NCBI GenBank assembly: GCA_965248535.1
Contig: CBDFJR010000005.1
Span: 1,344,001 to 1,408,000, forward strand
DNA: 64,000 nt
Reading direction: 5' to 3'
From: Phormidesmis sp.
Lineage (GTDB): Bacteria; Cyanobacteriota; Cyanobacteriia; Leptolyngbyales; Leptolyngbyaceae
The notes under the pieces are model-generated. The model was not told where the DNA came from. It saw only the letters and a list, made by a program, of their open reading frames with translations, and made no database searches. The position numbers were made by a program, and so were the translations under genes. Of the stretch, positions 293-37,851 are shown piece after piece (the first letter of the stretch is position 1; each line of letters begins with the position of its first letter).

Positions 293-1711
293 ATGTACGA
301 AAAAATCACCCCTCCAACCACAGGTGCCGCTATTACATTTAAAGAGGGTGAGCCGATCGTCCCTGATCACCCGATTATTCCGTTTATTCGCGGTGACGGC
401 ACGGGGATCGATCTCTGGCCCGCCTCTGAGAAGGTGTTTGATGCTGCCGTGAAAGCCGCCTATGGGGATCAGCGCAAGATCACCTGGTTCAAGGTCTACG
501 CGGGCGATGAGGCGTGTGAGCAATATGGCACTTATGAGTATTTGCCCGAAGACACGCTAGCCGCGATTCGAGAGTTTGGAGTGGCGATTAAGGGCCCGTT
601 GACGACTCCGATCGGGGGTGGCATTCGATCGCTCAATGTCGCTCTCCGTCAGATTTTTGACCTCTATGCTTGCGTCCGCCCCTGCAAATATTACACGGGC
701 ACGCCGTCACCTCACAAAACTCCAGAAAAGCTAGATGTGATTATCTACCGTGAGAATACGGAGGATATCTATTTGGGGATCGAGTGGAAACAGGGGAGTG
801 AGATTGGCGATCGCTTGATCAAACTGCTCAACGAAGATCTGATCCCCAGCACGCCCGAACACGGCAAAAAGCAGATTCCGTTAGATTCGGGGATCGGCAT
901 TAAACCGATCAGCAAAAAGGGGTCTCAGCGGCTCGTGCGTCGGGCCATGCAGCACGCCCTGCGGTTGCCCAAAAATAAGCAAATGGTGACGCTGGTTCAC
1001 AAAGGCAACATCATGAAATATACCGAAGGGGCCTTTCGAGATTGGGGCTATGAGTTGGCGATCGAGGAGTTTCGGTCAGAATGCGTGACTGAGCGCGAGT
1101 CCTGGATTTTGGGCAACAAAGAGAAAAATCCAGATCTGTCTCTCGAAGACAACGCCCGTCAGATTGATCCCGGTTACGATTCGCTGACGGCTGAAAAGCA
1201 AGCTGCCATCTGCGAAGAGGTCAAATCGGTCTTAGATGCGATTTGGGAGACGCACGGATCGGGGCAATGGAAAGAGAAAGTCATGGTCAACGATCGCATC
1301 GCTGACAGCATTTTTCAGCAGATTCAAACCCGCCCAGATGAATATTCAATTTTGGCAACGATGAATCTGAATGGAGACTACTTATCGGATGCGGCGGCAG
1401 CGATCGTGGGCGGTTTGGGCATGGGCCCCGGTGCAAATATCGGCGATTCGTCGGCTATTTTCGAGGCCACTCACGGCACCGCCCCTAAACACGCAGGACT
1501 CGATCGCGTCAATCCCGGTTCGGTGATTCTCTCTGGCGTGATGATGCTGGAGTTTATGGGCTGGCAAGAAGCGGCCGATTTGATTAAAAAAGGATTGAGC
1601 GCGGCGATCGCCAACAGTGAGGTCACTTACGACTTAGCCCGCATGATGGAGCCTCCGGTGGAGCCATTAAAGTGCTCTGAATTTGCAGATGCAATTATTA
1701 GCCACTTCTAA
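293..1711 (+). CDS. icd: NADP-dependent isocitrate dehydrogenase
   Basis: [46 protein letters not shown] and [10 protein letters not shown] motifs. Confidence 0.98.
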
Positions 1712-3914: not shown

Positions 3915-4320
3915 AGTGAGAACCTCCAGACTTTGATCCTAGTACACTTGCTTTGAGAACGTTCACCTGATGCGGTCTGAGGATGGGCTAGGCCGACCTC
4001 TAAAAACTGCTAAACCCCCTCCCCAACCGCGCTAACTCAAGTAGTTCGTCAAATCTTAGGCTTTTAATCATCTGCTGACGACTGCCTCAAGATGAGTTGA
4101 GAACAATTCTTACTAAAAGAACCCCTAAGTTTTTGATGACTGCTGGAGGATTCAGACTAAACAGTAATTTTTAACTGGTTCCCCAGGATGTTCATGCCAT
4201 CCTTAAAAGTACCATGCCCATCAGCGCCGAACTTCACCCCCGGCAGATTTCCATCCCCCGCTTGATCTCTCCTTTAAAAACTGACGCGATCGCTCCAATT
4301 TTCTCTGTCTAGATGGATAT

Positions 4321-4435
4321 AAAAAACCAGCCATCGAAGCTCGATCGGCTGGTTAAGCTTGCTGTGTTGGGAGGAGAAATAGCCGATACCGAGACGCTTT
4401 AGCCACATTAATTGTGAAACACAGGACTGTAGACC
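4321..4435 (-). ncRNA. psrR1: Probable PsrR1 (SyR1)-like small RNA
   Basis: Minus strand has CCTGTGTTTCAC...CTCGGTATCGG, which I recall as the PsrR1 conserved blocks. It ends in an intrinsic terminator (4321-4354) and has an HLR1 box just upstream. The 5' end is approximate. Confidence 0.65.
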
Positions 4436-4451
4436 CGGCACTCTCTGACTC

Positions 4452-4469
4452 CTTGTAAAGAAATGTAAC
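4452..4469 (-). promoter_or_regulatory. HLR1 (RpaB-binding) direct repeat
   Basis: Minus strand GTTACATT-TC-TTTACAAG, close to (G/T)TTACA(T/A)(T/A)-N2-(G/T)TTACA(T/A)(T/A). Confidence 0.7.
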
Positions 4470-4514
4470 ATCACGTTTCCATAAATGCAACTTTTCTTTA
4501 CAAAAAAGGGTTTT

Positions 4515-6866
4515 CTAAATGATTAAGCAAAGCCCCAATAAGATGGCGGTGATCGCAAGCAGGGTAGACCAAATCTGATGCCCACTGCGGCTGATGCGAC
4601 TGCCCGATCGTAAGGTGTCCAGATCGATCCAGGGGGTTGCCCCGCGTCGAAGCCAGCCTGTGACTAGCACCGCTTGCCCGACTAGATCGGCGGGGCGAGT
4701 GACCGAGGGCAGCAGATTACCGACTGCGCCGACCTGGGAACAGTAGTGCAGCTTAATCAAGCCGTTTGCGGTTTGCAAGAGCAAATCTTGCCCTAGCCAG
4801 TTGGCGATGCCGATGCGTCCGATCAATCGCCCTTCTAAGCGAATGGGTTGGCTGTCGATCGGCAGCGCATCGGCTGCGGTCAGCCAGTTTGAGGGCAATG
4901 AGAGAGTTTCTGAAGGCGGCGGATCTGACTCGCTGGTTAAACGGGCGGACGATCGCGTTGACTCCAAACCATTGAGTTCTGGAAAGAACGTATTGAAGCG
5001 CAGAAAGATGCCCAACCCTAACCCGATGGACATAAACCCCGCAAACAGGTTGTAGTCACTCGCTAGCCAAGAAATTTGCTGCGCTCCAAATCGGTAGGCA
5101 ACCTGAGCCGCAAACCACAAAATCTGAGCGATCAGATAGCCTGCCGCCAGCCCAAAAAATGGCGCACCTTGCAGCCAGAACGATCGCGGGTTGCGATTCA
5201 CAGATTCAGATGGCTCAATCTCTAATTCTGGCTCTAGCTGCCAGTGCAGCGCATAGTGGGTAAGGCGTTGCAGCCGACTGCCCATGAGAGGATGAGAGTG
5301 GTTAATCGCTAACCAATCGCGATCGGGGTTAACCAGATCCCAGTCCAAAAGAGCCGTCAAAGACGTGTGAGGATAGAAGCTTCCCAGACTTGCGGCGGCT
5401 CCGTAGCTCAACGGCGTGAGCAGATCAAAGCCTTCTAGCAAATAATCGGTTTGAGTGTTTTGCTGAATCGTTTGCGCCGTAGCGATCGCGCTTTTGACTA
5501 AGGCGCGAATCAATCCATTTGGGTTTCCGGTTAGGTTGCAGGCTGCCCGATCGCTGTAGACTAGCCGCTGCCTTGAGAGCCACAGACCCGACCCGCGCAA
5601 AAGCCGATAAAAGCCATAGCTGACGGCAGACCCGATCGCCAACCCGTCAGACCCAATGCCCAATAAGACCGCCATTAGCTTACTGTCTCGCTGTCGCGCC
5701 GCACTGCTTTTGCGGAGCCAATCGCCTGCCGCTGCCGCTTGCCAGTAGAGCACATAGGGAATTTGCAGGACGATCGTCACCCAAGACATGAGGCTAAAAT
5801 CCCAGTGCAGAATGTGACCGAGTTCGCCTGCGTAGATAGCTGCGATTTCGTCATCGGTCAGTTGGTCGAGTAGGCCCTGACTGACGACAATTCGAGAAAA
5901 TCGCCGCAGAGAGCCGTAGGTAAACGCCAGAGGCGCGGAGGTGGGCACAACGCCCAGACGCGGCAGGGGCATTTTGTGCTGCTGACAAAAGCGCTGAATC
6001 AAGCGATAGGCTTCGGGGCTGTGAGTGCCTAGCGTAGTCGTCGAGAGGGGACGAAGGTGATAAAACCTTTTGAGCAGGGCATCCAGCAGCCAAGGAGAGG
6101 TAACCAACAGCCCGGCCAAGATCACGAGAATCGTGACAACCGGAATATCTGACGACGGAATTGGACTACCCCAGCGCAGAATGCTGGTGGTGAACTTGAA
6201 CCAGATCAGCCCGATCGCGTTCACGACCCCAAACACGCTGGTGATTAGCGCAAAAAGCACGATCGGGGTTGCCATTTCTGCCCACTGCAACCGAGCCGGG
6301 TTGAGTCTAATTAAAGGTTGCCAGCGCTGCGATCGTCCGGCACTGCGCCAAATAGTCGAATTTGGAGGAGCCGCTGCGGATTTTTTAGCGGATTTTTCAA
6401 CAGCCGTAGCAGGTTGAGGGACGGGTGGAGAGTCTACATTTTGAGCAGATGGCTGACCCGTTACCCCGGCGCTGGTTGGGGGCACGAAGACCGATCGCTG
6501 TGCCTGGGTCTCAGACCCAGGCACAAATCCGGCTAGGTCTGGGGTTTCCTCGACTTCAGAAGAGGATGGATATCGCTGCTCAATCTCTTCTAACGTCTGA
6601 CTGGCCCAATCTCTGACTTTGCCATTAGCGCTAGAAAGCAGGTGTTGGCAAACGGCGATCGCCTTTTTAGATCGCCCACTTCGCAGATAGACCGTCGCCA
6701 ACCACATGCGCGCCTTGATCGAGTCGGGCTGTTCTAGGGCACCCGCTTGAGACACCAGATAGCGCTCTAAGTGCTGAATCGCCTGGGGATAGTTGCCCTG
6801 TTTGATTGCTGCCAGACCCGCTTCGAGACGATTTGCACCCGAAGCAGCATCAGGGGAAGAAGTCAT
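4515..6866 (-). CDS. TPR + M48 (HtpX-like) membrane metallopeptidase-family protein with degenerate active site
   Basis: N-terminal TPR-like helices; PLAFTYG...IVVSQGLLDQLTDDEIAAIYAGELGH; SDRAACNLTGNP; HSHP..GSRL. Confidence 0.8.
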   Translation of the reverse strand: MTSSPDAASGANRLEAGLAAIKQGNYPQAIQHLERYLVSQAGALEQPDSIKARMWLATVYLRSGRSKKAIAVCQHLLSSANGKVRDWASQTLEEIEQRYPSSSEVEETPDLAGFVPGSETQAQRSVFVPPTSAGVTGQPSAQNVDSPPVPQPATAVEKSAKKSAAAPPNSTIWRSAGRSQRWQPLIRLNPARLQWAEMATPIVLFALITSVFGVVNAIGLIWFKFTTSILRWGSPIPSSDIPVVTILVILAGLLVTSPWLLDALLKRFYHLRPLSTTTLGTHSPEAYRLIQRFCQQHKMPLPRLGVVPTSAPLAFTYGSLRRFSRIVVSQGLLDQLTDDEIAAIYAGELGHILHWDFSLMSWVTIVLQIPYVLYWQAAAAGDWLRKSSAARQRDSKLMAVLLGIGSDGLAIGSAVSYGFYRLLRGSGLWLSRQRLVYSDRAACNLTGNPNGLIRALVKSAIATAQTIQQNTQTDYLLEGFDLLTPLSYGAAASLGSFYPHTSLTALLDWDLVNPDRDWLAINHSHPLMGSRLQRLTHYALHWQLEPELEIEPSESVNRNPRSFWLQGAPFFGLAAGYLIAQILWFAAQVAYRFGAQQISWLASDYNLFAGFMSIGLGLGIFLRFNTFFPELNGLESTRSSARLTSESDPPPSETLSLPSNWLTAADALPIDSQPIRLEGRLIGRIGIANWLGQDLLLQTANGLIKLHYCSQVGAVGNLLPSVTRPADLVGQAVLVTGWLRRGATPWIDLDTLRSGSRISRSGHQIWSTLLAITAILLGLCLII

Positions 6867-6901
6867 AGGTTTCCTGAATGCACAGCGCCTCTAGGATACC
6901 C

Positions 6902-8530
6902 CTATAGGGCGGTTGGCTCTTTCCCAGAAACTACGGGGGCGATCGAGTTCAGGCTTAACTCAGGGTGATCGGCTTGAAGCTGCTGACAGTTCCACTCGTT
7001 GCGAAACAGTAAGACAGGGCGCTCCCAGCTATCTTTGACCGTCAACGTGTTGAAAATTCGTCCGACTTTTTGCAGCGCCTCCCAGCCACCCTCAACCCAG
7101 CGCGCCACCGTGTAAGGCAGCCACTCGACCGTCGTCTCGACCCCATATTCGTTTTGCAGACGAAACTGCACGACTTCAAACTGCAACTGCCCAACGGCCG
7201 CTAAGATCGGGTCGCGTTTGGCTTCGTCGGCCGAATACATAATCTGCACAGCCCCTTCTTCTCGAAGCTCAGACACGCCCTTGCGGAACTGCTTAAACTT
7301 AGACGGGTTGGGGTTTCTCAAATAGGCAAATAGCTCTGGCGAAAAGCAAGGAATGCCTTCATATTCCAGCCTTTGCCCGTTGTAGATGGTGTCTCCGATC
7401 GCAAACACGCCCGGATTATTCAAACCAATCACATCACCGGGGTAGGCTTCTTCGATCACTTCTCGATCTTGAGCAAAGAGCTTTTGAGGACGAGACAGCC
7501 GCACGGTTTTGCCAGTCCGAGCAAGGCTGACGGTCATATCTTTCTCAAACTTGCCCGAACAGACTCGCACAAAGGCGACCCGATCGCGGTGTTTAGGGTC
7601 CATATTGGCCTGAAGCTTGAACACAAACCCCGAAAACTCTGGATAGGTCGGGGCAATTTCACCCTGACTGCTGTCGTGATTGCCCGGCTTGAGCGCGTAA
7701 TCAAGGAAGGCATCTAAAAATAGCTCGACTCCAAAGTTGGTCATCGCACTCCCAAAGAAAACGGGAGTCATTTTGCCTTGATGAACGGCTTCTAGATCAA
7801 GCTCGGGCCCTACGCCCTCGATCAGTTCCAACTCGTCTTTGAACTGATGATAAAGCCCCTGCTCTAACAGCGACTCAATGCGCGGATCACCGAGATCGAT
7901 CGCCGTGTCGATCGCTTCTCGTGTGCCGTGTTGACTGCGCTCAAATAAGTGAATCTGCTGACTGCGGCGATCGTAGACTCCCTGAAACAGATCGCCCATG
8001 CCGATGGGCCAATTCACCGCGTAGGTTTGCAAGCCTAGCTCTTGCTCGATTTCGTCCAATAGCTCTAGCGGCGTGCGGCCGGGACGATCGAGCTTATTGA
8101 CAAAGGTAAAAGTGGGCAGCGATCGCAGCTTGCAGACTTCAAACAGCTTGCGGGTTTGCGGCTCTAGACCTTTGGCAGCATCGATCAGCATGACTGCATT
8201 ATCGGCGGCGGCTAACGTCCGGTAGGTGTCTTCACTAAAGTCTTGGTGTCCGGGTGTGTCGAGCAGATTGATCTGACATTTTTGATACTCAAATTGCAGC
8301 ACGGTGGAGGTGATCGAGATGCCGCGCTGTTGCTCCATGGCCATCCAGTCTGAGGTGGCGTGGCGTTGAGAACGACGGGCTTTGACGGCTCCGGCTTCAT
8401 GAATGGCACCGCCGTAGAGCAGCAGCTTTTCAGTCAGGGTCGTTTTGCCTGCGTCAGGGTGAGAAATAATTGCAAAATTGCGTCGCCGCTCAACTGCTGT
8501 TTGCAATTCAGCCTGAAGTTCAGTGGACAT
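6902..8530 (-). CDS. prfC: Peptide chain release factor 3
   Basis: [53 protein letters not shown]. Confidence 0.98.
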
Positions 8531-28133: not shown

Positions 28134-28259
28134 ACAGAACCAAACTTCTATTGAGAGAAGAGCACAATGTAGGACAAACCGCTCTGAAACTTTGCATCCA
28201 CATCAGGGCTTAAGCTAGTCTGCTCTGACTGGGTTATGTTGCCGCGATCGCAACCATCA

Positions 28260-28478
28260 TCAAGCAATTTGAAGCGTCCTTGGTTCAGGGATAGGTTCTC
28301 CTTCTGCTTGCCAAGCCTCCAAGTACATTTCAATCACTTCTTCGCCGTTATGAATGGCTTCCTCACGGGTTTTGCCATGCGTGCAGGGCATGACAACAAG
28401 ATTGGCAAACTCTGGAATCGTGACGAGGAAAAGCTGATCTTCGTCAGACCATTGAACAATCATGCTGTATCGATTCAT
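28260..28478 (-). CDS. hicB: HicB family antitoxin (copy 1)
   Basis: MNRYSMIVQWSDEDQLFLVTIPEF...THGKTREEAIHNGEEVIEMYLE...PIPEP. Confidence 0.9.
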   Translation of the reverse strand: MNRYSMIVQWSDEDQLFLVTIPEFANLVVMPCTHGKTREEAIHNGEEVIEMYLEAWQAEGEPIPEPRTLQIA

Positions 28479-28699
28479 GAATCCCCGTCCTCCCTTAACT
28501 CTTTCAGTACAGTAAGTAACTTTGCTAGTTGTTTTTCTAGGTAGAGTGGTACATCGTCTCCATCCTTGCCTGGAATTGTCAGTGTTTCTTTGAGCAAAGG
28601 ATGTCGCCAACGCTCATGGCTGCCTTTGCCACGCTTTGGCAGATAAACAAACCCTTCACGCGCAATCTGAGTTTTTAACGCTCGAATTTTCCTGGGCAT
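28475..28699 (-). CDS. hicA: HicA family toxin (copy 1)
   Basis: GF...RGKGSHERWRHP...LTIPG. Confidence 0.9.
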   Translation of the reverse strand: MPRKIRALKTQIAREGFVYLPKRGKGSHERWRHPLLKETLTIPGKDGDDVPLYLEKQLAKLLTVLKELREDGDS

Positions 28700-28752
28700 C
28701 GATATTGCCTAACTTTTCCCCTATTCTTTTTATTATCCTATTAAGAGTGCCG

Positions 28753-28857
28753 GAGAACGTAAATGGGATCGCGTTCTGCAATCTCTCAAAAGCGGATGTA
28801 GTGCGCCATCAGTTGGTGCAGCGCATTGTCGAAGCTTATGAAGAGTTTGAGCAGTAG
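28753..28857 (+). pseudogene. phoH: Orphan 3' fragment of phoH (copy 1)
   Basis: Translates to ENVNGIAFCNLSKADVVRHQLVQRIVEAYEEFEQ*, the PhoH C-terminal DVVRHxLVxxIVxAY motif; no N-terminal part present. Confidence 0.85.
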
Positions 28858-28920: not shown

Positions 28921-29166
28921 TCATTCCCCTGTGTAGAAATAGGAAAACAGCTCTTCTTCAGGAATATATTGGCTTGCTTGCCGAAGAATGACTCTACAGG
29001 TTCCTGTATCTAGCTGCTTATGATTTGGTACGATTAGCGTCTCGTTGCCTGATTCTCCAACTCGGCGGAGTTTAATGTGACTTCCTTTCTGGCTGTGAAC
29101 TTGAAATCCAAACGATTCGAGGATTGAAATCACACCTTCCGCAGATAAGCGTTTCAGCTTAGGCAT
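28921..29166 (-). CDS. hicA: HicA family toxin (second type)
   Basis: MPKLKRLSAEGVISILESFGF...QKGSHIKLRR...VPNHKQLDTGT. Confidence 0.9.
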   Translation of the reverse strand: MPKLKRLSAEGVISILESFGFQVHSQKGSHIKLRRVGESGNETLIVPNHKQLDTGTCRVILRQASQYIPEEELFSYFYTGE

Positions 29167-29392
29167 ACTGTGGAACTAGCTCAAACGTAACCACGATCGA
29201 GGGTTGAGAGATGACTTGCAATCGGCTCAAATCTTCATCTTCGAGATACAGAGAAACCGCCTCACTCAGATTTTGCATGACTTCATCCAAGGTGTCTCCC
29301 TGAGTCACAATGGCAAACTCTTGGCACTCGGCAACATATCCGCTTTGGTCGCCCGGATAAACTGTTGCGTGGATCTTTTCTCGAAGGGTCAT
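29159..29392 (-). CDS. hicB: HicB family antitoxin (second type)
   Basis: GYVAEC...IVTQGDTLDEVMQNLSEAVSLYLE. Confidence 0.9.
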   Translation of the reverse strand: MTLREKIHATVYPGDQSGYVAECQEFAIVTQGDTLDEVMQNLSEAVSLYLEDEDLSRLQVISQPSIVVTFELVPQYA

Positions 29393-29505
29393 TGACTCTC
29401 ACAGGAATTAAGTGGGTTTAATTTTAGCGTAGCACTCCGGCGAAGTGCGATCGTACTTTTTCCCAACTCAATTCTTAATCCCCGTAGTAGCGATCGCAAC
29501 CATCA

Positions 29506-29724
29506 TCAAGCAATTTGAAGCGTCCTTGGTTCAGGGATAGGTTCTCCTTCTGCTTGCCAAGCCTCTAAGTACATTTCAATCACTTCTTCGCCGTTATGAA
29601 TGGCTTCCTCACGGGTTTTGCCATGCGTGCAGGGCATGACAACAAGATTGGCAAACTCTGGAATCGTGACGAGGAAAAGCTGATCTTCGTCAGACCATTG
29701 AACAATCATGCTGTATCGATTCAT
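29506..29724 (-). CDS. hicB: HicB family antitoxin (copy 2)
   Basis: Same protein sequence as 28260-28478. Confidence 0.9.
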   Translation of the reverse strand: MNRYSMIVQWSDEDQLFLVTIPEFANLVVMPCTHGKTREEAIHNGEEVIEMYLEAWQAEGEPIPEPRTLQIA

Positions 29725-29945
29725 GAATCCCCGTCCTCCCTTAACTCTTTCAGTACAGTAAGTAACTTTGCTAGTTGTTTTTCTAGGTAGAGTGGTACAT
29801 CGTCTCCATCTCTGCCTGGAATTGTCAGTGTTTCTTTGAGCGAAGGATGTCGCCAACGCTCATGGCTGCCTTTGCCACGCTTTGGCAGATAAACAAACCC
29901 TTCACGCGCAATCTGAGTTTTTAACGCTCGAATTTTCCTGGGCAT
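29721..29945 (-). CDS. hicA: HicA family toxin (copy 2)
   Basis: Two amino-acid differences (L>S, K>R) from 28475-28699. Confidence 0.9.
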   Translation of the reverse strand: MPRKIRALKTQIAREGFVYLPKRGKGSHERWRHPSLKETLTIPGRDGDDVPLYLEKQLAKLLTVLKELREDGDS

Positions 29946-29998
29946 CGATATTGCCTAACTTTTCCCCTATTCTTTTTATTATCCTATTAAGAGTGCCG

Positions 29999-30100
29999 GA
30001 GAACGTAGATGGAATCGCGTTCTGCAATCTCTCAAAAGCGGATGTGGTGCGACATCAGTTGGTGCAGCGCACTGTCAAGGCTTATGAGGTGTTTGAGTAA
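29999..30100 (+). pseudogene. phoH: Orphan 3' fragment of phoH (copy 2)
   Basis: ENVDGIAFCNLSKADVVRHQLVQRTVKAYEVFE*. Confidence 0.85.
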
Positions 30101-30225
30101 TAACGCACCACCGATAGCAACGAGCCTCAAACTCAGCACGCCTATTTTTCAACCAGCCGCTGCATTTGATTTGTTATACTTCTGAAGATCGAATCACTGG
30201 TCAGTTTTGGGAAGTGAAGTGCAGG

Positions 30226-31371
30226 ATGCTAGACAGCAAGCAGCAAGCAGAAGAAGAGCTGGAGAATGCTGATCTTGGTCTGGGTGTTGACCCCGATGAA
30301 GATGAAAGTATAATTCAGCCGTTTGACCCTGAATTAATTAGGGTTGAAACTCGACCGATGACAATTGACCTGTTGCTACAACGTATTAAATATGAGGAGC
30401 TTAATCTAACGCCAGATTTTCAGCGGAAGGACGGGATTTGGAATCCTCGTACTAAAAGTCGTCTCATTGAATCCATCCTTATTCGGATTCCACTGCCAGC
30501 TTTTTACATGGATGCCACTGATGAGGATAAGTGGGTAGTTATTGACGGCTTACAAAGATTAACGACCTTGAAAATGTTTGTTAATGATAAATCACTAAAA
30601 CTTAGCGAACTTGAGTTTTTGACCCAGCTTGAAAATAAAACTTTTGAGGAATTGCCACGCAATCTACAACGACGAATTATTGAAACTCAAGTCACAGTCT
30701 ATTTAATTGAGAAAGGAACGCCTAGCAAAGTTAAATTTAATATCTTTAAACGCATCAATACTGGTGGCTTGCCGTTATCGTTACAAGAAATTCGCCATGC
30801 TCTAAATATTGGTCATTCAACTAGGTTTTTGGAGAAACTTGCTAACTCGGCTGAGTTCAAGAAAGCAACTGCTCATAGAAACTTCAGCCAACGGATGGCA
30901 GATCGTGAGTTCATACTACGATTTCTAGCTTTTGTGATTCATCCCTACACCGACTACAAAGCGACAGAGTTTGATAGCTTTCTGAGTGACGTGATGGCAG
31001 AGATTAATGAAATGAGTGAACAGAGAATTAACGATCTGGAACTGAAATTTAGCAAGGCTATGATTGCTGCTTACGAAATTTTTGGCAATGATGCTTTTCG
31101 TAAGCGATCCAGACAAGATGCCCCAAGGTCACCAATTAATAAAGCATTGTTTGAATCTTGGTCAGTTAGTCTAAGTCAGTTAAGTAGGGATCAGATTCAA
31201 ACCTTGGTAGAACGTAAAGAGCAATTGAAAATGGGCTTTATTGGACTCATGAACGATCGCGAAGTGGAGCCTAAATTTGAGTCATCCATCTCTCAAGGAA
31301 CGGGAGATACTAGAAAAGTCAAACGTAGGTTCAGTGCTATTGAGCAGTTGATTCAAGAGGTCTTAGCGTGA
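30226..31371 (+). CDS. DUF262 (ParB/GmrS-like) protein; Menshen NsnA-like
   Basis: PDFQR...W...KSRLIESILIRIPLPAFY, VIDGLQRLTTL, IFKRINTGG. Confidence 0.88.
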   Translation: MLDSKQQAEEELENADLGLGVDPDEDESIIQPFDPELIRVETRPMTIDLLLQRIKYEELNLTPDFQRKDGIWNPRTKSRLIESILIRIPLPAFYMDATDEDKWVVIDGLQRLTTLKMFVNDKSLKLSELEFLTQLENKTFEELPRNLQRRIIETQVTVYLIEKGTPSKVKFNIFKRINTGGLPLSLQEIRHALNIGHSTRFLEKLANSAEFKKATAHRNFSQRMADREFILRFLAFVIHPYTDYKATEFDSFLSDVMAEINEMSEQRINDLELKFSKAMIAAYEIFGNDAFRKRSRQDAPRSPINKALFESWSVSLSQLSRDQIQTLVERKEQLKMGFIGLMNDREVEPKFESSISQGTGDTRKVKRRFSAIEQLIQEVLA

Positions 31372-32477
31372 TCTGCCAACTGCGCTTACAAAACTTCAAA
31401 CGATTTGAGGATCAATCTTTAGAACTTGGAGCATTGACTCTCCTTTCAGGACTCAATGGAATGGGGAAATCTTCCGTTCTGCAATCCCTTTTGCTGTTGC
31501 GTCAGTCATATCAACAAGGATTATTAGAATCTACTGGTTTAGCCTTAAACGGCGATTTAGTCCGTATTGGCACTGCCAGAGATGCTCTATTTGAGGATGC
31601 GAGAGAGGACAAAATTGAATTTGTTCTTACTTTTAGAAATGGCAGTGAAGCAATCTGGCAGTTTGGCTATGATCCTGAAGCAGATATTTTAGGGCTGACT
31701 TCATCTGCTGTGCCATCTGAAACTTACCAACTCAGCTTATTTGGTGATAATTTTCAATACTTGCAAGCTGAACGTCTTGGGCCTCGAACCTCTTTTGCAA
31801 TATCTGATTTTCAAGTGCGACAGCATCGTCAGTTAGGAACTATGGGCGAGTATGCTGCCCACTTCCTATCCATTTTTAGAGACTCTGAAATTTCAACTCC
31901 TACGCTCAGTCATCCGCAAGCAAAGTCTTTAAACTTGCTGAACCAAGTTGAGGCTTGGTTGGGTGAAATTAGTCCTGGAACTCGGATTCATATCGTTGAT
32001 AGCCCAGGTATGGATCTGGTGAGCCTACAATATTCTTTTGGACTAAGCAAGGAGTATCGTGCAACAAATGTTGGCTTCGGCATCACATACACGTTGCCCG
32101 TGATCACTGCCATCTTGTCAGCCAAACCTGGAGCTTTAATACTACTTGAGAACCCAGAGGCGCATCTGCATCCCAAAGGTCAAGCTCTCATGGGTAGTTT
32201 ATTAGCCAAAGCTGCGGCTGAAGGTGTGCAGATTATTCTAGAAACTCACAGCGATCATGTGCTAAATGGAATTCGTCTTGCTGTGCATGGAGGAAGTCTT
32301 GATCCTAATGCAGTGCGATTACACTTTTTTCAGAGACGTGAATCTCCGGGGCAGTCTATCAGTGAAGTGATTTCACCCCGGATGAATCGTAGAGGACGAA
32401 TTGACCAATGGCCTGATGGATTTTTTGATGAGTGGGATAATAGTCTTGCTGCGTTACTTCAACCCGTTGAGGAGTGA
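31368..32477 (+). CDS. AAA/ABC-type ATPase with DUF3696 C-terminus; Menshen NsnB-like
   Basis: LQNFKRF, Walker A GLNGMGKSS, NVGFGITYTLP, LLENPEAHLHP, ETHSDH, IDQWPDGFFDEW. Confidence 0.88.
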   Translation: MICQLRLQNFKRFEDQSLELGALTLLSGLNGMGKSSVLQSLLLLRQSYQQGLLESTGLALNGDLVRIGTARDALFEDAREDKIEFVLTFRNGSEAIWQFGYDPEADILGLTSSAVPSETYQLSLFGDNFQYLQAERLGPRTSFAISDFQVRQHRQLGTMGEYAAHFLSIFRDSEISTPTLSHPQAKSLNLLNQVEAWLGEISPGTRIHIVDSPGMDLVSLQYSFGLSKEYRATNVGFGITYTLPVITAILSAKPGALILLENPEAHLHPKGQALMGSLLAKAAAEGVQIILETHSDHVLNGIRLAVHGGSLDPNAVRLHFFQRRESPGQSISEVISPRMNRRGRIDQWPDGFFDEWDNSLAALLQPVEE

Positions 32478-32480
32478 CTA

Positions 32481-33401
32481 ATGGCGGTTGAAATGGTTTT
32501 GAATGATCTGTCTCTTCTTTCTCCCGTCAGCGATCGAGGAACGGCTAGAAAGTTGATGACTGATCTAATTAGTGTGCTCAGTACAGCGGTGATTTCTGGA
32601 GTCAAGACTTTGCGTACTCAGGATAATCTCTACAATCTCATACTCTCGCCTGACTATCCTGTTGCAAGTTGGTTGAATGATGGACAAGTTGAACGGGAAG
32701 AGCGTAGCTTCCTACGAACACTTGGAACTAAAACACCCCTGCTAGCAGAAATCATAGATTCGACTGTCCAAGAGGAAGAGTGCCTGACTGATTTTAGGCA
32801 TCGAGGAGAGCTAGCTTATGCGCTGGGCATTGCGTACTTGCTGAATGCCCTGGTAATTAGTTTTCACTCTGAGCCAAGGTGGAATTGCGACAGTTTAGAC
32901 CTAGAGATTACGAGGTTAGAAGATGAAACAAATTCAGAGGATGTAACTGCGGAACTGACTCTGAAGACGAGTACTGAAAGACTTATTCACGCTAGCCGAA
33001 GAGAGCATATTCTTGGGCACAAGGCACAGATTGAGTATCGCTTTCGTGCAGAGCCTTGGCATTCTGAAGACGAGATACTGCGTTGTCATATCACAGCAGA
33101 TAGGAAAAGTCCCATGTCTGAATGGCTAAATTCTCTTGGCGATCGACGAGCGAAGGAATTTATCCAAGCTAGGCTCAATCAGGTAAAACAGGGTAATTTG
33201 GGTGACTGTAAATCTGTCGGGGAAGGCGTATGGGAATTGAGGATCTTTTATGGCCCTGCCTACCGAATTTATTTTGGTCAGGTTACAGCAGTTCAGCCAT
33301 TACTTCTGAATGGAGGAGATAAAAGCACTCAAGCACAGGACATCATTAAGGCTAAACAGTATTGGCGAGATTATAAACAACAGCAACGTATCTCAGACTG
33401 A
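32481..33401 (+). CDS. Unknown N-terminal domain fused to RelE/HigB-like addiction-module killer toxin; putative Menshen effector
   Basis: C-terminal ~100 aa SPMSEWLNSLGDRRAKEFIQARLNQVKQGNLGDCKSVGEGVWELRIFYGPAYRIYF...GGDKSTQAQDIIKAKQYW. Confidence 0.8.
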   Translation: MAVEMVLNDLSLLSPVSDRGTARKLMTDLISVLSTAVISGVKTLRTQDNLYNLILSPDYPVASWLNDGQVEREERSFLRTLGTKTPLLAEIIDSTVQEEECLTDFRHRGELAYALGIAYLLNALVISFHSEPRWNCDSLDLEITRLEDETNSEDVTAELTLKTSTERLIHASRREHILGHKAQIEYRFRAEPWHSEDEILRCHITADRKSPMSEWLNSLGDRRAKEFIQARLNQVKQGNLGDCKSVGEGVWELRIFYGPAYRIYFGQVTAVQPLLLNGGDKSTQAQDIIKAKQYWRDYKQQQRISD

Positions 33402-33428
33402 CAATATGAACAATACTTGCCAAGTTAC

Positions 33429-36400
33429 TCACACCAGTGCAGGTTCGAGGAGTGCGCCTTGCATTCGACTGAGCCAATCGATCAGATTAGAGAGTTGTTG
33501 GTCAGCACTGAGCATTCCCAAGCCGCGCACAGTGACTTTGCCGGGAGTGTAGACAAAGCGAGTTTGCAGATGATTGGGCAGGTTTTCTTTGAGCAGATTC
33601 CAGCCGGGTTCCTCCATTGGGGTTTCGAGAATGACGTGCTGTTTGCCGTCGGGCTTGATGCGAGAAAAGCCGATTTTTTTGGCGACTTGTTTGAGTTCCA
33701 TGACGCGCAAAAGTTGGAGGGCCGCGATCGGGATCGAGCCATAGCGATCGCTCCAGTCTGCCGCAATCTGGGTCAACTCTGGTTTAGAAGATGCGGTGGC
33801 AACTAGGCGATAGGCATCCATTTTTTGGTCTAGGTCGGGAATGTAATCGGCTGGAATAAAGGCGGTGAGACTGAGATCGATCTGCGTGTCGTCCACTTTG
33901 GGAATTTCTTGACCGCGAATTTCTTTAATCGCGTCTTCGAGCATCTCCATGTAGAGATCGAACCCGATCGCGTCCATTTGTCCCGATTGTTCGGCTCCGA
34001 GCAGGTTGCCCACGCCGCGAATTTCCATATCTCGCACGGCTAGCTGATAGCCTGAGCCGAGTTGGGTAAACTCTTGGAGTGCCCGCAGACGTTGACGGGC
34101 TGCGTCTGAGAGTTCGTGTTTTTTAGGATAAAACAGCCATGCGTGCGCCTGAATGCCTGCCCGTCCGACGCGACCGCGCAACTGATAAAGCTGAGACAAC
34201 CCGAACTTTTGAGCGTCTTCGATCAGGATTGTGTTGACTCTGGGAATGTCTAACCCCGACTCGATAATCGTGGTGCAAACGAGAATATCGGCTTCGGCTT
34301 CGCCAAAGGTGAGCATCGTGGATTCGAGTTCTGACTCTGGCATTTGCCCGTGAGCGACTGCAATTCTGGCACCAGGAATCATCTCGCGCAGTTGAGCCGA
34401 GATTTCTTCAATGCCTTCGACTCTGGGAACGACGTAGAAGATCTGTCCGCCCCGATCGAGTTCTTGTCGAATCGCCGATCGCACCATTTCAGGATCGTAG
34501 GGCGACATATGAGTTTTAATCGCACGGCGAGACGGCGGAGGAGTTGTAATTAAACTCATTTCGCGCACGCCAGATAACGCCATATATAACGTGCGAGGAA
34601 TCGGAGTTGCACTGAGACTGAGAACGTCAACTTGAGTTTTGAGCGATTTGATTTTCTCTTTTTGATTTACGCCAAATCGCTGTTCTTCATCCACTACCAA
34701 CAGTCCCAAATCTTGGAACTGAATGCCTTTTCCTAACAGTTGGTGAGTGCCAACGACAATATCCAATTCTCCGGTAGTTAAACGACGCTGAATATCTTTG
34801 CGCTCGTCAGCCGTGCGAAATCGATTCAGCAATCCGACCTGAATGGGATAAGGTGCAAATCGTTCTTTGAGGGTGTGATAGTGCTGTTGAGTCAAAATCG
34901 TGGTTGGTGCTAGCAATGCTACTTGCTTTCCGGCGATGACGGCTTTAAATATTGCCCGAATCGCAACTTCGGTTTTGCCAAAGCCGACATCCCCACAGAC
35001 CAATCGATCCATCGGACGATCGCTCTCCATATCCAGCTTCACATCTTGGGTGGCTTTAAGCTGATCGGGCGTGGGCTGATAGGGAAACGATTCTTCCATC
35101 TCTTGCTGCCAAGGCATATCAGTGGGGTAAGCAAAGCCGGACTGCTGCGATCGCTGGGCATAGAGATGCAGCAAATCCACCGCAACTTTTTTGATCGCTT
35201 TCCGAACTTTGCTCTTGGTTTTCTCCCAGGCTTTGCTCGACATTTTGTTGAGTTGCGGCACCGCTTCGCCCACGCCCCGAAACCGAGACAGGGCGCTGAG
35301 TTGATCGGCTGCAACTCGCAGTAAACCATCGGCATATTTCAATACTAAATACTCGCGAGTTTCTTCATTAAGCGTCAAACTTTCGAGCTTGATGAATTGA
35401 CCGACCCCATGATTTTTGTGAACCACATAATCACCGGGCTGCAATTTGTTGGGATCAACTTGCTTAGACGCAGCGCGGCGACGTTTGCGAACATAGCTCG
35501 GAGTCGTGAGGCTGTGTTGTCCAAAAAACTCCCGATCGGTGACCAACACCATCCGAAAAGTTGGCAGAATAAAGCCTTCTAGCTCGGCTAACCCCGAATA
35601 TTTGACCGCCACCGGAACGTGCTGAATTTGCAGTTTGTCGATCGCTAAAAAATCTCGCGGGTTGGGCACAAACTGCGCGGGGCAATCATGCTCTTGCAGC
35701 AGCGAAACTGAGCGAGACGGCTGGGCTGAGACGAGCCAAACTGAGAAGCCCCGATCGCGCTCTCCTCTCAACGTTTCAGCGAGTCGCCCAAACTGGTGGG
35801 GCACCGCAGGAACGGGACGGCTGGCGAGATTTAGCCCATTCTTCTCTTCTGCCAGTTCGCTGAGAAAGAGACGATCGAAGCACTCAACTTCAGCCAGAGA
35901 CGCAGCAAACGAACGGTGCGTTTTAGGGAACGGGTGAGAGATTTCTTGCCAATGTTCTTCGACTTGATCAAACCAGCGATCGCCGTGGGCTTCACACATT
36001 TCTGGTTCGTCAAGCGCGATCAAAGTATTGTCAGGTAAATAATCTAGCAGAGACGCAGGTTTTGAGAAAGCGAGTCCTAAAAAGCGGCGCATTCCCTCGA
36101 TCGCGTGTCCTTGCTCAAATTTTTCTTGATCTTCGGGAGAGAGATAAGGCTCAACTTGCTCAAACGTTAGATGAGATTGAATAATCGGGCTGAAACTCGT
36201 GGGAGTCAGCACCAAGCGATCGATGCGATCGAGCGATCGCTGCGTAGACGGATCAAACTCCCGAATCTGATCTAATTCGTCGCCAAACAACTCCAATCGA
36301 ACAGGCAGTTCTGCTGCGACCGGAAACACATCGATAATGTCTCCTCGACGGCTCCACTGTCCTTCGGTTTCGACGAGATTGACGCGATCGTAGCCCAGTC

Positions 36401-36896
36401 TTGCTAACTCGTTACTGAGCGTATTGAGGTTTAGCTCTTTGCCACGATCGAGCGACAAACAATAGGGCGCAAAGGCTTCGACAGGCGGCAGGTGAGTTTG
36501 CAGGGCGCGTTCGGTGGCCACGATCGCCAGAGCACCCGGCTTTTCGGTTTCGTCGGTCGTCTTGACCAAATCTGCCAAGACCTGCAACTGTCCCCAATTC
36601 ATCTCTGCTTCGGGGTCAAACACCTCGTAGGGCGACGTTTCCGACGTGGGATAAAAATGCACCGTTTGCCAGCCCATTGCCTCTAGTTGAGCGCTCCAGC
36701 GTCCGGCTTCTTCTAAGGTTGCCGTGACCACCAGCAACGGACGGGTTTGAGCTTGCGCCAGCGTAGACGCGACTAAGCCCTTGGGCAATCGTGCTAGCCC
36801 ACTCAGCCGCAAAAATTGCTGCTGCTTGAGTTTGTTGAGCAGTTCAGTCGTTAGGGGCAATCGGCCGAGGGCACGAGTGATCGAAGAAAACGCCAT
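33429..36896 (-). CDS. mfd: Transcription-repair coupling factor
   Basis: [49 protein letters not shown]. Confidence 0.98.
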
Positions 36897-37026: not shown

Positions 37027-37851
37027 TTATCGGTGAGTTTCCACAAGTTTTTGAAAGGCGACCAACGTTTGTTGATAACGCTCACCTGCGACCCACGAGA
37101 AATCATTGTGTCCTGCCTCGGCAACCCAAAGAGACATCTTAGGCTCTGATGCAGCTTCATAAAGTCGCTGACCGTGTTGAATCGGAATGGTTTGATCTGC
37201 TTGACCGTGCATCACGAGAACCGGACACTGCACCTTTCGCAGCTTATCAAGGTTAGAAAACTTGTCGAAGGGAAGTATGGGAAAAGGCACAACGACCCGG
37301 AAGGCAGATGTAAACGTGCTCTCTAAAATCAAACCGCCCACTGGATGCCGAGTTGCTAGGTCAACGGCTGACCCACCCCCCACCGATCGCCCATACACAA
37401 TAATTTGTTTAGGAGGTATTTTGAGTTGTTCGGTTAGATACCGATAGGCTGTCTCTGCGTCCTGATAAGCGTTGCGTTCGCTGGGGTTGCCGTTGCTGGT
37501 TCCATAGCCACGGTAGTCATAAGCAAACACACTAAATCCCCAACTGTGCAGGCGATCGAGCAACGGACGAATATCCCCCAAATCTTCCGCATTGCCGTGA
37601 ATGTAGAGCAAGGTTTGGGTCGCTTGAGAATTGGGCAAGTAGAGGGCTGAAATCTGCTCAGTTTGAGTCACCGACAGCTTAAGACTATTTTTTGAATCTT
37701 GGTAGCTAGTAGGCTGCGGCAAAAAGATCATGCTGTCTGCTCGAAAAAAGACGTAAAGCGCGAAAAACGTGTAGATAAATAGGAGCGATCGCACCAGTCT
37801 TTTCCAACTCAGATCTCCGATGATCAGTTTTCTTAACGGCAATTGACGCAT
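37027..37851 (-). CDS. Alpha/beta hydrolase (ABHD17-like)
   Basis: HGNAEDLG, YDYRGYGTS, GRSVGGG, HGQADQTIP, GHND. Confidence 0.9.
   Translation of the reverse strand: MRQLPLRKLIIGDLSWKRLVRSLLFIYTFFALYVFFRADSMIFLPQPTSYQDSKNSLKLSVTQTEQISALYLPNSQATQTLLYIHGNAEDLGDIRPLLDRLHSWGFSVFAYDYRGYGTSNGNPSERNAYQDAETAYRYLTEQLKIPPKQIIVYGRSVGGGSAVDLATRHPVGGLILESTFTSAFRVVVPFPILPFDKFSNLDKLRKVQCPVLVMHGQADQTIPIQHGQRLYEAASEPKMSLWVAEAGHNDFSWVAGERYQQTLVAFQKLVETHR

Follow-up and report, generated by a model that had tools for sequence, protein, structure and literature searches.

How is a RelE/HigB-type toxin domain kept in check when it forms the end of a larger protein and is followed by no antitoxin gene? This question is raised by a three-gene operon, nsnA-nsnB-nsnC, located at positions 30226 to 33401 of a 64,000-nucleotide stretch of the genome of the cyanobacterium Phormidesmis sp. 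(contig CBDFJR010000005.1, positions 1,344,001 to 1,408,000 of the forward strand; this whole stretch is hereafter called the window, and its numbering is used for the features below). An earlier note, made from the sequence alone, had described the operon as a Menshen-like defence operon with an effector-swapped third gene ending in an antitoxin-less toxin domain. By computational analysis, we consider it likely that the locus is a Type I Menshen anti-phage operon carrying a Gp49/HigB-type NsnC, in which an ATPase complex would restrain the toxin. The features of the operon and its immediate flank are as follows.

30226 (ATG) to 31371, plus strand: nsnA (gene 1), with an alternative TTG start at 30166
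31368 to 32477, plus strand: nsnB (gene 2), its GTG start sharing 4 bp with the TGA stop of nsnA
32481 to 33401, plus strand: nsnC (gene 3), 306 amino acids, beginning 3 bp past the nsnB stop
32481 to 33050, plus strand: NsnC N-terminal domain, residues 1-190, PADLOC NsnC model PDLC03879
33093 to 33401, plus strand: NsnC C-terminal domain, residues 205-306, Gp49/HigB-type RelE-fold RNase, TIGR02683
33402 to 33428: 27-bp spacer between nsnC and the stop of the convergent mfd gene
33429 to 36896, minus strand: mfd, 1155 amino acids (TIGR00580, 1058.9 bits against a cut-off of 800)

The list of open reading frames (ORFs) agreed with the earlier note in coordinates, 4-bp overlap, 3-bp gap and convergence of mfd after 27 bp, and Pfam bore out its description of the products as a DUF262 protein, an AAA ATPase with a DUF3696 tail, and a 306-residue protein. 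The ATG at 30226 is likely to be the start of nsnA because the relatives start at residues equivalent to it.

The identity of the first two proteins was clear. NsnA matched PADLOC model PDLC03877 with E 5.6e-147 (residues 9-380 on model positions 21-383 of 385) and Pfam GmrSD_N/DUF262 with 1.9e-23. As hallmarks of NsnA, Li et al. (2025, Nucleic Acids Res 53:gkaf357; PMC12065111) describe the DUF262 motifs QRxxxW, DGxQR and FxxxN together with a C-terminal ParBDB region, and the translation carries FQRKDGIW (QRxxxW), DGLQR and FKRIN (FxxxN). NsnA was found to consist of ParB-DUF262 and a C-terminal DNA-binding region without any extra N-terminal sensor domain, and the operon is therefore Type I Menshen in the terms of Li et al. 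NsnB matched PDLC03878 with 2.3e-124 over model positions 1-344 of 345, more weakly the PADLOC models of AriA, PtuA and GajA, and in Pfam AAA_15 (5.2e-23), AAA_21 (1.6e-20) and DUF3696 (4.8e-17, residues 311-363). It is an OLD-type ABC ATPase with a DUF3696 tail. The hallmarks reported for NsnB, namely EN replacing DE in Walker B, GxG replacing SGG, and the DUF3696 tail (PMC12065111), find their counterparts in Walker A GLNGMGKS, Walker B LLENPE (EN for DE), GFG, and ETHSDH with the sensor H294, and these motifs are invariant across 45 NsnB sequences. With the N-terminal domain of NsnC matching PDLC03879 at 4.9e-41, the PADLOC run confirmed all three genes as Menshen components.

The C-terminal part of NsnC carries the toxin. 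Residues 205-298 matched TIGR02683, a RelE/ParE-family model that stands for the toxin of the HI1419/HI1420 pair, with 104.6 bits (cut-off 62.85) and over positions 2-95 of 95. In an AlphaFold 2 (AF2) model of NsnC built with 37 homologues, this domain reached a predicted local distance difference test score (pLDDT) of about 90, with helices at 211-218, 222-236 and 281-305 and strands at 243-247, 250-255, 261-267 and 273-280. The best Foldseek match was ribosome-bound HigB1 of Mycobacterium tuberculosis (7nbu_Y; E 1.2e-3, probability 1.00, TMt 0.61), accompanied by HigB of Streptococcus pneumoniae (6af3/6af4; TMt 0.66-0.68) and then by RelE, YafQ and HigB2. The full-length TIGR02683 match and the HigB fold altogether support the earlier reading of the last approximately 100 residues of gene 3 as a whole RelE/HigB-type toxin. 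The long C-terminal helix is described as typical of Gp49-like toxins (PMC9098466).

Conserved residues of this domain suggest a candidate catalytic pocket. Across 37 NsnC homologues the mean column identity is 66%, and in these fusions K244, E252, R254, R262, K281 and Q284 show either complete conservation or conservation of 90% or more; E252, R262, K281 and Q284 remain invariant in a small alignment including two free toxins. The pocket residues reported for HigB-TAC are K58/E66/R68/R77/K95/Q98 (PMC9098466), and the spacing of the conserved NsnC residues (8, 2, 8, 19, 3) nearly matches that of the HigB-TAC pocket (8, 2, 9, 18, 3). Judging from fold, family and pocket pattern, the C-terminal domain is probably a complete, active HigB-type RNase.

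The N-terminal domain is of a different nature. The match to PDLC03879 covers residues 1-190 only, on model positions 1-177 of 305. The domain belongs to the commonest N-terminal family of NsnC, which Li et al. term 'inactive PIN-like'. Its AF2 model was of high quality (pLDDT 94.7; predicted template modelling score 0.89), with N8 standing at the end of the first strand. D67 was the sole acidic residue conserved at 90% or more among 107 sequences, and therefore the D-E-D-D tetrad of PIN domains is not conserved. Structural comparison by VIA-align aligned the domain with the PIN domain 1o4w_A at Z 5.0 (root-mean-square deviation 4.5, 103 residues aligned), tied with unrelated Rossmann-like folds; other PIN domains among the 50 rows were 2mdt (Z 4.4), 2hwy (4.0), 5wz4 (3.9) and 8rdd (3.9). 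In the whole-model pass of VIA-align, none of 48,161 chains reached Z 5, and the tabled Z values of up to 5.1 (1lqt_A) come from re-alignment. Foldseek with the same domain model gave no match with a TM-score above 0.27.

The association between ATPase and effector was then modelled with two NsnB chains and the N-terminal domain of NsnC. The model scored 0.73, while the best control scored 0.00; at least 91% of the contacts were common to three runs, and the pLDDT of the partners was 79 or higher. Of 157 solved complexes, 116 attain the mark used for this score, as do 2 of 215 mismatched pairs; these counts are a rough guide here, as our own alignments were used. In the modelled interface, residues 344-366 of both NsnB copies face NsnC helices 30-38 and 71-82, including in NsnC the conserved VEREERSF and in NsnB the invariant G343, R344, W348, W356, L360, L363 and L364; the contact residues are among the most conserved on both proteins. 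The model reproduces, for a Gp49-type system, the AlphaFold 3 prediction of Li et al., in whose NsnB4-NsnC2 complex two DUF3696 tails clamp the N-terminal domain (PMC12065111). It thus supports the predicted binding, and control of NsnC by the ATPase would fit such a complex.

According to the published account, NsnC is composed of an inactive-PIN N-terminal domain (35 families) and interchangeable C-terminal effectors, and the proposed roles are sensor for NsnA, transducer for NsnB and effector for NsnC (PMC12065111). As described there, nine of the 15 effector families fall in the RelE/BECR superfamily, Gp49 being named; Gp49 is one of the BECR families listed as having validated RNase activity, with citation of the HigB-TAC paper; and the majority effector, PB-BECR1, is itself YafQ/RelE-like (PMC12065111). 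Among the papers covered by a literature search there was no experimental one on the mechanism of Menshen, the sole dedicated paper among them being computational. Another BECR family in Menshen is described in a 2026 preprint, which questions the inactivity of PIN in that family, and one preprint reports higher-order Menshen complexes by mass photometry.

On this basis the following sequence of events is proposed. NsnA (ParB-DUF262) would sense phage DNA, as the literature suggests. The NsnB ABC ATPase oligomer, as in our model, would clamp the N-terminal domain of NsnC between two DUF3696 tails, and an ATP-linked change of NsnB might then free or activate NsnC. Finally, the HigB-like domain would cut mRNA in the ribosomal A site, stopping both translation and infection, as fold, family and conserved putative pocket residues suggest. 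In this scheme, the ATPase complex and not a type II antitoxin would restrain the toxin domain.

The predicted interface also bears on the best-surviving alternative, in which the effector would be selective for phage RNA, the N-terminal PIN-like domain serving as an RNA-binding guide, and the cell would survive without abortive infection. RNA target recognition by the inactive PIN domain was proposed by Li et al., whose published discussion leaves the choice between phage-RNA targeting and abortive infection undecided, and the 35 families of N-terminal domain across Menshen (PMC12065111) show a diversity that would suit such a guide. The N-terminal domain is, however, well conserved within the fusion family and not hypervariable, and its conserved surfaces face the NsnB tails in the model. 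Furthermore, toxins of Gp49/HigB type are reported to act on the ribosome, cutting A-site codons and showing little selectivity for the template (PMC9098466). We therefore regard RNA guidance as improbable.

The fusion was found to be neither unique nor new. A total of 65 NsnC homologues was found, of which about 58 were full-length (about 300 residues) with 51-88% identity, originating from many metagenomes and some NCBI records. Precomputed PF05973 (Gp49) matches were recorded for 6 of the 65. Seven loci were recovered from species genomes (L001-L007). Three of the four fusion-bearing cyanobacterial loci (L002, L003 and L004, all from metagenome-assembled genomes) showed the order nsnA-nsnB-nsnC with fused NsnC, and their downstream neighbours differed (mnmG, an epimerase and an unknown ORF), as expected of a mobile operon. 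L001, from genome G006, labelled Phormidesmis sp., is syntenic with the window, mfd included. L005 (Gemmatimonadota) and L007 (Methylomarinum) have the N-terminal domain alone in common with NsnC of the window, their NsnC proteins matching PDLC03879 end to end, and L006 holds a toxin and its antitoxin as a free pair. In a set of 41 related genomes, the full-length fusion was present in three, the window's own being counted; one more (G021) carries Menshen with the usual NsnC end, and many others carry free toxins only.

The earlier note had called for a survey of the domains paired with this N-terminal domain. A search with the domain gave 553 representative proteins at E ≤ 1e-3, of which 150 were listed; 106 of at least 270 residues were kept and 44 shorter ones were dropped as fragments. 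The C-terminal parts of the 106 full-length representatives, among the matches listed, fell into clusters of 99, 3, 2, 1 and 1, indicating that the N-terminal family joins at least five different ends and that the window represents a minority form. Among these matches, the RelE/Gp49-type end was carried by three (P0027, P0053 and P0132), while an H..R..GYIGxH-type end was common to 99. The latter pattern would fit the H-R-H triad that Li et al. describe for PB-BECR1. The proposal of an effector-swapped variant thus stands insofar as three of 106 carry this end against 99 with the usual one. It falls short in novelty, as about 58 relatives exist, three loci share the gene order, and the Gp49 end is already catalogued; the fusion is accordingly neither confined to this assembly nor the standard form of NsnC. 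Publications already cover Menshen, the polymorphism of its effector and the Gp49 class, and the three genes are recognised by PADLOC models. A PADLOC model, PDLC03894, covers NsnC residues 4-298 at 1.8e-8. Its positions 191-291 weakly matched the free toxin of L006 (E 5.1e-4) and gave no match to the C-terminal domain of the window or to the free toxin of the same genome (described below) when these were taken alone; it is suggestive that PDLC03894 is already a Gp49-type NsnC model. What is new here is the model of two NsnB chains with the NsnC N-terminal domain, the free paralogous toxin-antitoxin pair, and a sister genome in which nsnC is intact but nsnA and nsnB are broken.

As to the antitoxin, the earlier note was right that none follows gene 3: the 27-bp spacer leaves no room for an antitoxin gene, and two plus-strand ORFs overlapping the end of mfd (33310-33552 and 33417-33806) gave no Pfam match. 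In the account of Li et al. (PMC12065111), no NsnC effector is accompanied by an antitoxin or immunity gene. Absence of an antitoxin is then the rule for NsnC and no peculiarity of this operon, and the operon is not a type II toxin-antitoxin module, for which a cognate adjacent antitoxin is the criterion.

A search of the whole genome gave no TIGR02684 match above the cut-off. The best match below it lies about 215 kb from the operon, directly downstream of the only free TIGR02683 toxin of the genome. The pair is of HI1419/HI1420 type and is positioned as follows.

G000:C5:1590550-1593819 (locus L010), ORFs 1468-1827 and 1182-1559, minus strand: free toxin-antitoxin pair

The toxin of this pair (114 residues) is 50% identical to NsnC's C-terminal domain over the toxin's full length (E 6e-37), and the antitoxin (99 residues) passes PF21716 with 36.3 bits against a cut-off of 27. 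One may ask whether this antitoxin neutralises NsnC in trans, so that the lack of an antitoxin would be only apparent. Against this, PF21716 at E ≤ 0.001 was found in none of the four other fusion-bearing genomes, the completeness of which is unknown, and in an unrooted tree of 21 rows the free toxins and all the fused domains were placed on opposite sides of one split with support of 91/92. Type II pairs seldom cross-neutralise at 50% identity. Neutralisation in trans is thus highly unlikely.

Two further observations concern antitoxin-like sequences. P0063, a metagenomic protein of 205 residues, carries a TIGR02683 toxin at residues 18-105 and an HI1420-type antitoxin at 123-202 in one polypeptide, which reflects either a fusion of toxin and antitoxin or a gene call that read through. 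In L003, a 98-residue ORF (7042-7338, plus strand) downstream of the fused nsnC showed a sub-threshold ribbon-helix-helix match (RHH_3, E 0.0094; 16.3 bits against a cut-off of 21.6), and nothing comparable was found after nsnC in the window, L002 or L004.

The copy of the closest relative, L001 of genome G006, is broken. NsnA is represented by residues 1-116 only, in inverted orientation, and NsnB by residues 289-369 beside nsnC. The positions within L001 are as follows.

1265 to 1612, minus strand: nsnA stub
4058 to 4486, plus strand: fragment of an IS240-type DDE transposase
5752 to 5994, plus strand: 3' stub of nsnB
6001 to 6906, plus strand: intact nsnC, 301 amino acids

A 299-residue NsnB fragment (P0285) is located elsewhere on the 1.77-Mb contig of L001. 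Scanning of the window between 29900 and 33600 showed no promoter excess, with six promoter-like sites against 6.2 expected by chance, and zero terminators. That the operon of the window is likewise a decaying or silent remnant with an effector no longer working is scarcely credible: the broken copy with its transposase fragment and the lack of promoter or terminator signals above chance speak for it, but none of the three ORFs is disrupted, the stop of one gene overlaps or adjoins the start of the next, no hallmark motif has been lost, and column identity and pocket residues are conserved in the homologues as described above.

The intact nsnC of L001 gives a hint that this protein may be silent or not toxic by itself; since L001 keeps nsnC with both partner genes broken by IS-linked rearrangement, NsnC may be tolerated without working NsnB. 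If so, the N-terminal domain would autoinhibit the toxin in cis and NsnB would activate it, the opposite of a PARIS-like release. The split in the tree is compatible with a single capture of the toxin, within the limits of 21 rows and an unrooted tree. That Gp49-type NsnC arose by such a single capture of a HigB-like toxin, the NsnB clamp and perhaps the N-terminal domain in cis taking the place of the antitoxin, is a rather doubtful proposal; if true, Menshen could be considered an ATPase-gated, phage-triggered 'antitoxin'. A clean, intact cyanobacterial Menshen operon, a free paralogous toxin-antitoxin pair and an nsnC-only sister genome together offer a compact test bed, bearing on the role of NsnB as restrainer or activator of the effector and on the need of a RelE-type effector for the ribosome.

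Several points weigh against the interpretation as a Type I Menshen operon with a restrained HigB-type effector. For the toxin domain, Pfam Gp49 (PF05973) scored 23.1 bits, just below its cut-off of 23.9. Searches of PDB sequences with whole NsnC, with its C-terminal domain and with a seven-sequence profile of this domain gave no relative, so that fold and TIGR02683 carry the link to HigB; the putative pocket is equated with that of HigB-TAC on the basis of spacing and conservation. In the N-terminal domain, a PIN-like fold was seen weakly, in a model. The predicted complex shows likeness to a published prediction and not binding itself, and the published account includes no predicted complex with NsnA through which it might signal to NsnB (PMC12065111). 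The uncertain completeness of the four genomes mentioned above limits the case against an antitoxin acting in trans. Lastly, we infer, rather than observe, all of anti-phage activity, toxicity, ribosome dependence and abortive infection. With these points taken into account, a Type I Menshen operon with a Gp49/HigB-type NsnC under ATPase control is still our preferred interpretation.

The operon was probably acquired horizontally, as judged from its low GC content and patchy distribution. Its GC content is 42.9%, below the 49.8% of the window and the 52.0% of mfd, in agreement with the earlier statement that the operon is richer in AT than mfd, and 0.16% of the sliding 3176-bp segments of the window were as GC-poor. 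The complete HIP1 sequence (GCGATCGC) occurs at 51 sites in the window; as the earlier note had observed, none is within the operon, and none lies between 29497 and 33744. This HIP1-free gap of 4254 bp is the second longest of 50 gaps in the window. By our own arithmetic, about 1.7 gaps of this length are expected at the HIP1 density of the window; the gap is therefore not significant alone, and it was dropped as a sign of foreign origin. Low GC content is the better signal.

The flanks of the operon show further rearrangements. Upstream, a 608-bp direct duplication was detected at 28244-28851 and 29490-30097, the copies being 97.9% identical with 13 mismatches and each opening with a HIP1 site. 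Each copy carries a pair of HicA toxin and HicB-like antitoxin on the minus strand (28260-28699 and 29506-29945), and a third HicA-type pair is located between the two copies (28921-29392). The end of the second copy lies about 130 bp upstream of nsnA, which places the Menshen operon at the edge of a small toxin-antitoxin islet. Beyond mfd, the segment 36951-38637 is missing from the otherwise collinear L001, indicating an insertion or deletion between close relatives, and includes an alpha/beta-hydrolase gene at 37027-37851 (Hydrolase_4, 7.4e-21).

Among known systems, the closest is the Gp49-type Menshen described by Li et al. The two agree in gene order, in the motifs of NsnA and NsnB including the EN Walker B, in an NsnC of inactive-PIN-like and BECR domains, in the lack of an immunity gene, and in the predicted DUF3696 clamp; as far as the published description goes, there is no difference in kind. 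The archetype given by Li et al., that of S. silvestris, combines inPIN11 with PB-BECR1. The majority form of Type I Menshen combines inPIN1 with PB-BECR1, the identification of the majority N-terminal family as inPIN1 being inferred from the frequency statement of Li et al. With this form the operon of the window has in common the N-terminal family (27-47% identity) and NsnA and NsnB (57-59% identical or better), and it differs in the RelE/Gp49 type of its C-terminal domain. Compared with type II HigBA and HI1419-HI1420 systems (TIGR02683 with TIGR02684/PF21716; structural exemplars M. tuberculosis HigB-TAC, 7nbu, and S. pneumoniae HigB, 6af3/6af4), NsnC shares the complete toxin domain, the fold and the long C-terminal helix, and its putative K/E/R/R/K/Q pocket resembles in spacing that of HigB-TAC. 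Unlike these systems, its toxin has no adjacent antitoxin and is placed behind a 190-residue domain within a three-gene ATPase operon. An OLD-type ABC ATPase oligomer gating a nuclease effector is also the plan of PARIS (AriA/AriB), Septu (PtuA/PtuB) and Gabija, with which Li et al. compare the asymmetric hold of the effector between two ATPase protomers (PMC12065111). The operon differs from all three in that the effector is a RelE-fold RNase instead of Toprim or HNH, and in that a separate gene encodes the ParB-DUF262 sensor.

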